Part shown: positions 31,201 to 33,735 of the stretch, one piece after another
Layout: each line of letters begins with the position of its first letter
Position numbering within the stretch: position 1 is the first letter of the stretch
Assembly (NCBI GenBank): GCA_977020255.1
Contig: CDROCS010001312.1
Location: forward strand, 1,240,001 to 1,304,000
DNA from: Obrimoposthia wandeli
Taxonomy: Eukaryota
Reading direction: 5' to 3'
Length of the DNA stretch: 64,000 nt
Position numbers and translations under genes: made by a program
Notes under the pieces: model-generated
What the model saw: the letters and a program-made list of their open reading frames with translations, nothing else
The model's database searches: none
What the model was told of the DNA's origin: nothing

Positions 31201-31249
31201 TTCTTGAAAGTTTCTTATAAACAAATATAGTTTTTTTTATTTTTTAAAA

Positions 31250-32133
31250 ATGCTTGTTGATTATATACTTCATTATAAAACTGTTGATGATGTTTTAGTT
31301 AGATGAAAAGTAAATTATTCTAGAATGAAAGTTTTACACTTGAAATATAGACGTGAAAGTGAAAGATTAAGATAGTTAATTATAAATTTTAAAGGGAAAC
31401 AATCTGTATATAATTTAGCTAAAGCCGGATTTTATAAACATGATGATGATTCAACAGATAATATAAAATATATATATATTGTCAAGGTGCAATATTCGAA
31501 TGGGAATGGTATCTTAAACCAATGAAGCAACATATGAAATTTTTTTCTACATGTCCATTTCTTTTAAAGTTAAATGTTTCAAATGTACCAATAATTGAAT
31601 CTATGGTCAAGAAAATGGATTTTGATACATCACCATGTATTGGAAAAGTATATGTATCAGATATTGTTGTAAAATTACCTGATATATGTTATTCAAAACG
31701 TTTAGGACTCTATAATGATGCTAATGTTATTGAGAAAATCGAAACAGATTGTATAATTGAATATCCTTTAACTACGGAAAAATACAATATGTTGATGGAT
31801 ACCAACAACATCAGATACTTGAAAAGGTTTTTCATGAAAGATAGAATAAAATCTGTTTTAAAATATAAAATGATGCAATATGGAGAAAACAATTCACTAT
31901 TTGAAATGATTTGTGATTTATCTAATATAGAAATAAACCCTGAAAAACAATATATAAATATACTTTCATACATGAATGTGTAGTATGTTTGAATAATCAC
32001 ATTGAAGTAGTATTTTTACCATGCGGACATGTAAAAACATGTATTTCATGTTCCATAAGGTTACATTCATGTCCAGTGTGTCGAAATAGAAAGGAGAGTA
32101 AGAAATGTAAAATTTCATGGTATAAACAATTGA
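31250..32133 (+). pseudogene. Inhibitor of apoptosis (BIR + UBA-like + RING)
   Basis: RESERL...LAKAGFY...YCQGAIFEWEWYLKPMKQHMKFFSTCPF; DRIKSVL...GENNSLFEMICDL; CVVCLNNHIEVVFLPCGHVKTCISCSIRLHSCPVCR. Confidence 0.88.
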
Positions 32134-32155
32134 AATTTGGTGATTTATACAAAAA

Positions 32156-32340
32156 ATGAATTAAAACGATAAATTAGTTGATGATGTTTTTGATGAAATT
32201 ATAAACGGGAAAATAAATGGAGTTCAGTACTTTTCTAGTTTTAATGGACTTTCTCGTGATAATATAAAGAAAATTGTTCGCATCCATGTCTATAGAGATA
32301 TCAAATGGAAAAATGATTTTGAAATGTTTCAATCAGATTA
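32156..32340 (+). pseudogene. Unknown small E3 gene
   Basis: ATG 32156 with TATAAACA 35 nt upstream; early stop, then about 55 open codons. Confidence 0.35.
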
Positions 32341-32460
32341 ATCGTTCAAACATGATATATATAACTTTTTTTGTATCAATTTTTAATTCGTTTTTGGTAT
32401 ATATATTAATAAAATGCCTATAAACAATATTCTTATTCTTGTCTTATTCTTCTTATTATT

Positions 32461-33089
32461 ATGAAACTTAAAAATAATGCTGTATATCAAATAGTGGGAC
32501 CCAGTGGTAGTGAAAAAACCCATTTTGTAACTAAATTATTACAAAACAATAAAATGTTTAATAATCGATTTAATAAAATTTATTGGCATTATGGTGATGT
32601 TTGCAAATCCGGGTTAACTAAAAGTGAATTATGTAAACTTAAAAACATCAAATTATCAATGATTTTGATCAAAACTGGTAAAAATGGTTGAAACGTGATG
32701 ATGTTATAGTAATTGATGACTTGTATGATGAAGCAAATAAAGAGTCAAACTTTAATAATTTATTCACTAAAATAGCAAGACACAACTGTGTTACTGTAAT
32801 TTTCATTACTCAAAACCTATTTCATCCAGGCGGTAAACATAGAACACGTAATTTAAACGTACATTACTTAGTTTTGTTTAAGAATCCTCGTGATCAAACG
32901 GTTATTGACTATATTTCACGTCAAGCATTTCCTAATAACAGGCAATATTTGATAAATTTATTTCAAGATGCAACTAAAAATCCTCATGGTTACTTGTTTC
33001 TTGATTTTACTCAATCATGTCCTGATGAATTGAGAATAAGAACCGATATTTTCAACAAATGTATGGTGAATAAACAAAAACAAAGATAA
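32461..33089 (+). pseudogene. DNA-packaging ATPase
   Basis: Walker A mutated to GPSGSEKT; Walker B VIVIDDL; ITQNLF...RTRNLNVHYLVLFKNPRD; one frameshift. Confidence 0.92.
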
Positions 33090-33101
33090 TATTTCTTTAA
33101 A

Positions 33102-33735
33102 ATGAATTTCGAAAAATGAGAAATACCTAATTATGTTGATACAAATTGGAAACCTGGTGATGATATCAAAGCTAATCGAGTAAAGAAATTGATAAAAACG
33201 GTTTTGAAAGGAATGCAAAATGCTGATCGCATTTTTAAAAAGAAGACAAAACCGACAAAGAAACGTGTTAAAATGAAAAAGAAAATGTGTGTTAAAAATG
33301 TGTTAAAAATACAAAGAATTGGATTGTAATTGATGAAAAGGAAAAACAAAAAGAAGGTTTTAATCCATTTTTTCAATAAGACTATAAACAATATATGTAC
33401 TTTCAGTTTAAATAATAATGAAAAACGTTTAAACTTACTTTCAAACGCTTTTAAAGGCACCTAGTTCACATAGAGCTCGAATTCTCAATTCATTTTCACC
33501 TTTTGTTATCGATAAATTGTTTGAAATTCTGTTTAATATAGTTAAAGGAAAAGTAAATCTTAGTAAACATAAATCGAAAGTTACAAAACACAAGAAAATA
33601 TTAATTGATATTGTTAATACAAAAAGTGGTTCTGGTCGAAGGAAAATAGTATTACGCCAAAAAGGAGGATTTATTGGTGCACTTTTACTGATAGTGCAAC
33701 TTTAATCGGTCCTCTACTTACTAGAGCTGTTGCCT
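33102..33735 (+). pseudogene. Small basic Polinton protein ending in QKGGF
   Basis: MNFEK...VKKLIKTVL ... KLFEILFNIVKGKVNL...LRQKGGFIGALL. Confidence 0.7.

Follow-up and report, generated by a model that had tools for sequence, protein, structure and literature searches.

A variant TATA box before the structural genes of TBP-encoding Polintons in Obrimoposthia wandeli is a likely late promoter

Late transcription of beta- and gammaherpesviruses depends on a viral mimic of TBP, the TATA-binding protein, i.e. ORF24 of KSHV (Kaposi's sarcoma-associated herpesvirus) and its kin, and on TATTWAA promoters, as given in the accessible part of the source (bioRxiv 10.1101/2025.08.25.672222). In yeast, the altered-specificity TBPm3 (I194F, V203T, L205V) accepts TGTAAA (PMC1636458, accessible part). 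A TBP-like gene is labelled in figure legends on adintoviruses and MELD viruses, too (Starrett et al. 2021, PMC8502044; bioRxiv 10.1101/697771, accessible parts). Here we describe a stretch of 64,000 nucleotides (nt) from Obrimoposthia wandeli (assembly GCA_977020255.1, contig CDROCS010001312.1, positions 1,240,001 to 1,304,000 of the forward strand), called the window in the following, which carries the four Polinton elements E1 to E4. A variant TATA box, (T/C)ATAAAC(A/G), in front of their structural genes is likely to be the late promoter of a two-stage programme, read by an element-encoded TBP with replaced DNA-facing residues. Searches of the literature outside subscription papers and supplements returned no account of such a motif, nor of any late promoter described for Polintons of animals.

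The octamer TATAAACA was found 34 times in the window compared to 10.96 +/- 2.99 expected copies, a number reached by none of 100 shuffles. A preliminary description, made from the letters of the window alone, had listed 14 exact TATAAACA sites and AATAAACA at position 33069 at a fixed distance upstream of start codons. All their coordinates, strands and distances to the ATG were borne out. The sites are real, but the core is wider than the exact octamer proposed there and reads Y-ATAAAC-R. To the window 52 further stretches were added, and gene starts in at least seven Polinton families served as anchors for the sites. Of the 61 sites anchored in this way, 47 had T at position 1, 10 had C and 4 had A; position 8 was A in 47, G in 9, T in 3 and C in 2, and the flanks of the core were background-like. 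By the definition of the word, it differs from the canonical TATAWAWR in having C, not A or T, at position 7. In 45 of the 61 sites the distance to the ATG is 32-39 or 42 nt, and few are closer than 32 nt.

Strands were counted in 17 modules, one representative per family or contig, including distant metagenome relatives. The motif occurred 125 times in sense and 6 times in antisense orientation (expected 15.8). Forty-five of the 125 occurrences lie 30-49 nt before the start of an open reading frame (ORF), compared to 2 of 39 for TATAAA[AT]R, and nine near (single-base) variants gave no peak at this distance. A promoter-like role, proposed earlier as a family-wide promoter at TATA-box spacing, is supported because strand bias and fixed distance are accompanied by turnover of the sites, conservation in distant relatives and absence from the sampled host genes. 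The 5' leaders behind the motif would be very short.

In the per-copy counts that follow, the copies are related and not independent, and many were recovered through the TBP search. HATAAACR was present 26-50 nt before the ATPase gene in 32 of 38 copies, before core ORF a in 31 of 38 and core ORF b in 17 of 18, before the capsid gene in 36 of 40 and before the exonuclease-like ORF in 12 of 13. It was found within 110 nt of the penton gene (18/18 copies) and of the second core ORF (33/34). For the protease the motif lies at 26-50 nt in 7 of 32 copies and at 111-260 nt in 20 of 32. The variant box is carried by the structural genes; as exceptions, the exonuclease-like gene and some accessory genes carry it, too.

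Instead of the motif, the TBP-like gene is preceded by a canonical TATAWAWR at 26-50 nt in 44 of 46 copies, and HATAAACR was absent from the 260 nt upstream in all 46. A canonical box likewise stands before the first exon of the polymerase region in 4 of 6 families or contigs examined, before the E2-type IAP gene and before some other accessory genes. As judged from sequence, the motif marks one of two promoter classes, the other being the canonical TATA box on TBP, polymerase-region and some accessory genes. In window coordinates, the sites and associated genes are as follows.

5090..5097, plus strand: late-type site of E1, 33 nt before the protease micro-exon ATGAA/GTAAG; overlaps the capsid-gene stop codon
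5479..5486, plus strand: late-type site of E1, 35 nt before the exonuclease-like ORF
13591..13598, minus strand: late-type site of E2, 36 nt before a small MG-start ORF overlapping the integrase start
14024..14031, minus strand: late-type site of E2, 32 nt before a GGF core-protein-like ORF; encodes Y-K-Q in the ATPase end
14680..14687, minus strand: late-type site of E2, 33 nt before the A32-like packaging ATPase
14984..14993, minus strand: TATATAAACA of E2, canonical TATA overlapping the motif; probably early class and not a member
15775..16321, minus strand: TBP-like gene of E2, broken in the window copy; intron-like gap after the first repeat
16344..16351, minus strand: canonical TATATAAG of E2, 30 nt before the TBP-like gene
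17413..17420, minus strand: canonical TATATAAG of E2, 34 nt before the IAP gene
30721..30728, plus strand: canonical TATATATG of E3, 37 nt before the TBP-like gene
30758..31175, plus strand: TBP-like gene of E3, broken in the window copy; predicted intron after the first repeat
31216..31223, plus strand: TATAAACA of E3, 34 nt before the IAP; specific to this copy and probably without function as a member in the E3 family
32121..32128, plus strand: late-type site of E3, 35 nt before a small ORF behind the IAP (37 nt in 7/8 listed copies)
32419..32426, plus strand: late-type site of E3, 42 nt before the ATPase
33069..33076, plus strand: AATAAACA of E3, 33 nt before core-like ORF a; sister copies have TATAAACA
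33383..33390, plus strand: late-type site of E3, 35 nt before core-like ORF b
34541..34575, plus strand: two sites in the capsid gene of E3, 252 and 225 nt upstream of the start of the protease (34793)
45231..45238, minus strand: late-type site of E4, 42 nt before the exonuclease-like ORF
46873..46880, minus strand: late-type site of E4, 34 nt before the putative major capsid protein gene (no Pfam match)
47262..47269, minus strand: late-type site of E4, 33 nt before the second GG-motif core-like ORF; includes the penton stop codon
48332..48339, minus strand: AATAAACA of E4, 71 nt before the penton gene, within the integrase 3' end
49366..49373, minus strand: late-type site of E4, 36 nt before a small MG-start ORF
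49846..49853, minus strand: late-type site of E4, 38 nt before a GGF core-protein-like ORF
30059-30066 (minus), 36135-36142 (plus), 39455-39462 (minus), 43602-43609 (plus) and 44056-44063 (plus): motif sites in terminal repeats
13329-13562 (minus), 49077-49400 (minus) and 33750-33863 (plus): small MG-start ORFs

Two of the 14 sites claimed as members are probably none, and the remaining ones stand as late-type. At 31216, TATAAACA is present in 1 of 9 E3 copies and the other 8 read TATGA..; a sister family of E3 carries the motif before its own IAP. The site at 14991 is probably an ordinary TATA box because the motif overlaps a canonical TATATAAA there, with CA behind the canonical box, and the corresponding gene in the sister family has TATATAAG. 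Conversely, the site at 33383, 35 nt before its ATG, was absent from the earlier list.

The preliminary description had also named genes lacking the motif, and most of these absences are explained since the genes carry canonical TATA boxes. This applies to both TBP-like genes (boxes at 37 and 30 nt) and the IAP of E2 (34 nt). The penton gene had been counted among them, too, which does not hold, as AATAAACA begins at 48339, 71 nt upstream. For the proteases the claim needs correction: E3 has two sites 225 and 252 nt upstream (34568 and 34541), and the E4 copy in the window lost a site which three sister copies keep at 144 nt.

In all five terminal-repeat sites the motif is followed by a canonical TATAAATA, and no ORF lies behind any of them. 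Those of E3 face outwards, towards both element ends.

The host assembly comprises 1.35 Gb with 30% GC. E2, E3 and E4 each represent a multi-copy family of their own, in which the likeness between copies is mostly 87-93%; ATPase identity between families of this genome is 71-80%. By their gene content they classify as Polintons/Mavericks (adintoviruses): we found a protein-primed family B polymerase (PF03175, E=1.4e-34, in a copy of the E4 family), a retroviral-type integrase (rve, E=4.6e-10), an A32-like packaging ATPase (Pox_A32, E=7.7e-6), an adenovirus-type protease (Peptidase_C5, E=8e-4, score just under the family cut-off) and, in E3, terminal inverted repeats (arms 29853-30128 and 36073-36348, 95% complementary). 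The putative capsid-type ORFs of 406 and 337 amino acids gave no Pfam match. We take the labels capsid, penton and core from gene order and familiar motifs, Pfam having given nothing for these ORFs. The exonuclease-like ORF, likewise without Pfam match, is presumed to be such from a DxE motif.

The Polinton load of the genome is very large. A first look gave 19,768 TBP candidates and 30,238 capsid-protein candidates, which are not copy numbers; 150 and 99 of them, respectively, were scored. The first exon of the protease gene consists of five bases, ATGAA, followed by a splice donor (5123, 34793, 45623 and copies), the splicing being predicted from the donor sequence alone, and overlaps the capsid stop codon in several families. 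The small MG-start ORF, with a Cys-Cys region at its end, shares sequence with the start of the integrase gene but uses a different frame. The integrase, which has no closer motif site, may be translated by leaky scanning. Two of the four listed RNA runs were aligned to a family copy and gave flat coverage and no clear splice joints.

Many of the sites lie in coding ends, and the families share 71-80% ATPase identity. One may therefore suspect that the pattern is a by-product, owed to AT-rich DNA, common descent and the conservation of protein ends (Y-K-Q, I-N), all the more as two of the sites listed earlier were incidental. We regard this explanation as scarcely credible. Depending on the gene, the motif falls in one of three reading frames (Y-K-Q; x-I-N; V-stop), and it occurs in non-coding gaps, too. 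Its flanks are background-like and it persists at 41-47% GC. The site also moves, each family having a single one per gene but at alternative positions: for the second core ORF it lies at the penton stop (33-44 nt) or within the penton gene (96-101 nt), depending on the family. The intra-penton site is written TCT ATA AAC A, with rare codons (ATA accounts for 32% of the Ile codons, AAC for 17% of the Asn codons). In the E4 family the same S-I-N is spelled AGT ATT AAT, and the site is placed at the penton stop instead. The protease site is found at 33-36, 144 or about 225 nt, with one position per family. Between the expected start and the gene there is almost no ATG for the core, penton and 144-nt sites. 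Site turnover, the distant relatives and the counts in the 17 modules already contradict a by-product, and the sequences indicate that the motif is constrained as DNA.

Host genes might have shown the same motif at the same position. We found YATAAACR 26-50 nt upstream in none of 37 actin, histone and cytosolic Hsp70 genes, a small sample in which some genes have leader introns. These are 37 of 54 rows, 17 DnaK-type Hsp70 rows, bacterial or organellar by sequence, having been dropped; the assembly contains bacterial-type DnaK contigs, too (L285, L287-L294). Host actins have a canonical TATA in 10 of 13 cases, 43-84 nt upstream.

ATAAACA fits the forkhead consensus RYAAAYA, although forkhead proteins usually favour the GTAAACA form (YGTAAACR). 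A host sequence-specific factor such as a forkhead protein might thus bind the site and position transcription. In 11 of 18 host histone genes, and in one host TBP paralogue (L067), TTGTTTA, the reverse-strand word of the motif, lies within 70 nt of the ATG, which keeps a host-factor reading alive. Host genes show the opposite orientation, however, and the element sites are strictly oriented (125 vs 6) with a floor at about 32 nt. Further, position 8 tolerates G, position 1 prefers a pyrimidine, and YGTAAACR is not positioned (1 of 17 occurrences at 30-39 nt). A forkhead site as we understand it, used in either orientation and with GTAAACA accepted, does not describe these sites. We therefore consider this reading weak and very unlikely. 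In 11 of 18 histone genes (L036-L051) the coding strand has the longer word TTTGTTTAW at 36-68 nt upstream of the ATG, which is possibly a host core-promoter word.

The TBP-like protein of the elements matches the Pfam family TBP (PF00352, E=1.7e-11, above cut-off). Its structure model (pLDDT 97) is a two-repeat TBP saddle in which the long helix after the first repeat is missing, and the best Foldseek matches were all TBPs (E about 5e-10, TM 0.72-0.79 over about 171 columns); the modelled protein thus has the TBP fold. With 145-180 amino acids it is a bare TBP core. In a quick tree with long branches, element TBPs separate from cellular TBPs with support 99. Four families (L001-L010, L076-L078, L090, L092) share an intron-like insert at one position of the gene, which two others (L024, L079) lack.

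We compared 39 element TBPs of this first lineage and 37 of a second lineage (see below) with 16 eukaryotic TBPs, using what we take to be the yeast residue numbering, anchored on a fungal TBP. On the DNA face, the first lineage shows V71N (39/39), F99P (38/39), V122R (38/39), T124M (39/39), N159S (39/39), I194R (35/39), V203C (38/39) and L205N (39/39). F116, F190, F207 and E188 are kept in all 39, E186 in 37 and P191 in 36. The second lineage fixes L114Q, V122Q and V203H; F99P is common to both (38/39 and 37/37). The element TBPs do not show the canonical eukaryotic set of four phenylalanines, paired Asn and Thr and a hydrophobic DNA face. C7 belongs to the 3' half of the box, the half that the first repeat of TBP faces. 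The positions I194, V203 and L205 of TBPm3 touch the second base pair (PMC1636458, accessible part).

The element TBP family comprised 55 representatives at E<1e-30. Among 25 metagenome loci with a first-lineage TBP, a script found the exact motif 30-50 nt before an ORF in 12, and inspection by eye added 4 more, which have G at position 8 or an internal ATG. Motif-positive metagenome Polintons include some with 38-39% ATPase identity and 41-47% GC. Fifteen loci with a Polinton-type integrase or polymerase and no TBP match had no motif 30-50 nt before an ORF. All 8 of them that show an ATPase have a canonical TATA 34-46 nt before it. In the TBP-less relatives L233-L240, TTTAAA-type words were seen before penton and protease genes, and may be a different late signal.

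The metagenome locus L156 is a Polinton with ATPase, capsid and integrase genes and a TBP only 25% like the first family. YATAAACR occurs there once per strand and neither copy precedes a gene. Instead, ATGCAA (motif ATGCAAA) was found 30-47 nt before 6 of 15 ORFs, including the ATPase, a penton-like and both core ORFs, an enrichment reached by any 6-mer in 1 of 1000 random window sets. The TBP gene of L156 is preceded by a canonical TATAAAAG. The Polinton relatives with no TBP match have neither of the two motifs. This second TBP lineage has 61 relatives and forms its own group in the quick tree. IMG/VR scans with capsid, ATPase and second-lineage TBP queries returned no relatives. In the search of the O. 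wandeli genome no second-lineage TBP stood out, and a distant capsid protein gave matches of 28-31% identity only, so that no TBP-less family of this host came out as a control.

We propose, as the most likely course, that host TBP/TFIID and RNA polymerase II would first transcribe the genes with a canonical TATA box, i.e. TBP, the polymerase region and some accessory genes. The small element TBP would then bind the variant box in the minor groove and recruit host TFIIB through its retained E-x-E stirrup. Transcripts would start about 30 nt downstream of the box and have very short leaders, or leaders of 40-200 nt where the box lies inside an upstream gene.

The most serious competitor accepts the motif as a real core promoter and takes it for a weak TATA box read by host TBP/TFIID or a host TBP paralogue. 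The timing would then come from something else and the element TBP would have another job (decoy, genome ends). Wild-type TBP reportedly accepts the C(-25) variant through a Hoogsteen C:G pair, as Patikoglou and co-workers are said to have found in 1999. The host has several TBP paralogues (L066/L067, L069, L070, L068/L071), two of them head to head on one contig, and terminal repeats with no ORF behind the site contain the motif, too. A crystal structure of the wild-type protein on the C(-25) TATA variant is among the Foldseek matches (PDB 1QN3), so that TATAAAC can be engaged by host TBP. C7 is, however, fixed over all late-type genes and in distant hosts while the TBP gene keeps canonical boxes, and the ATPase of TBP-less relatives has a canonical TATA. 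Moreover, the motif differs where the TBP lineage differs, and the DNA face of the element TBP is changed yet invariant. Altogether, we hold a host TBP as the reader to be unlikely.

Besides the crystal structure, several findings weigh against an element-encoded reader or weaken its support. Only 13 of 23 copies of the small MG-start ORF carry the motif at 26-50 nt, and no clear initiator was seen behind the anchored sites. Zero to three ATGs intervene behind the 225-nt protease site. Several sites coincide with conserved protein ends (Y-K-Q, N/H-K-Q), and the penton site is weaker evidence because N/H-K-Q may be kept there for the protein. The remaining 9 of the 25 first-lineage loci have no site; these are contigs of 1-3 kb in which no ATPase or capsid gene was seen. 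The TBP-less controls are partial contigs, 8 of 15 belong to one close group, and besides the TBP their host is different, too. No ATGCAA-type site lies within 75 nt of the capsid, protease and integrase genes of L156. The second-lineage loci L178 (6.2 kb) and L250 (4.1 kb) contain no YATAAACR, and the predicted YATGCAAA was not found in them either; L250 has a single TAGGCAAA at 30 nt. The co-variation of motif and TBP lineage rests on one contig, L156, since these two do not confirm YATGCAAA. The Polinton fragment of L250 sits in a bacterial metagenome-assembled genome, where it is probably misbinned.

Alternatively, the motif might be the late promoter of a helper large DNA virus, the elements behaving as virophages. 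Virophages and a Polinton-like virus carry promoter motifs of their helper, according to the accessible part of a preprint, and the helper motif published there, AAAATTGA, is a different one (bioRxiv 10.1101/2022.07.28.501842). The elements described here encode their own TBP, and their TBP, protease and polymerase genes have canonical TATA boxes and GT-AG intron signals pointing to nuclear host polymerase II. As intron signals place transcription in the nucleus, they argue against a cytoplasmic helper, which we regard as highly improbable.

If the variant box is indeed read by the element TBP, a dedicated late promoter with its own reader would strongly support a real viral cycle of Polintons. 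The viral-TBP strategy of herpesviruses would then have arisen a second time, in a minimal form. It would also be natural evidence that the DNA face of TBP, usually held nearly unchangeable, can be re-specified. In a wider proposal, to which we give an even chance, animal Polintons of one large clade are autonomous viruses of the nucleus whose true early/late switch consists of a single gene, a captured TBP which was re-tuned in at least two lineages to orthogonal core promoters, YATAAACR and YATGCAAA. Such natural pairs of TBP and promoter would co-evolve away from the TATA box, with host TFIIB and polymerase II still in use. The motif helps the annotation of gene starts, micro-exons and gene classes in these elements.

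Compared with the known systems, as far as the accessible parts of the sources describe them, the elements resemble adintoviruses in being Polinton-type genomes with a TBP-like gene; the main texts of these papers never use the word promoter and give no motif or role (PMC8502044; bioRxiv 10.1101/697771). A short conserved motif before several genes of a small capsid-encoding element is known from virophages and the Polinton-like virus Gezel-14T/PgVV (bioRxiv 10.1101/2022.07.28.501842). That motif belongs to the cytoplasmic machinery of the helper, whereas the Polinton motif is accompanied by a TBP of the element itself and by host-type introns. The element TBP has the same three positions replaced as TBPm3 (by R, C and N). 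TBPm3 is a laboratory mutant, whereas the element TBP is natural, with other residues and with changes in the other repeat, too.

The herpesvirus system shares with the Polintons conventional promoters on early genes and a minimal variant TATA box on structural genes, as well as a virus-encoded TBP-fold protein with a polar DNA-binding face and the use of host RNA polymerase II. ORF24 is, in contrast, a large protein working with five other viral activators and the Polinton protein a bare TBP core. ORF24 keeps four phenylalanines and is without the TFIIB-binding glutamates, whereas the Polinton TBP lost one phenylalanine and keeps E186 and E188. The Polinton motif differs from TATTWAA in its 3' half, and the two systems were compared at the level of the fold only. 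By analogy, the Polinton system appears to work like the viral-TBP system of herpesviruses and is not a member of it.

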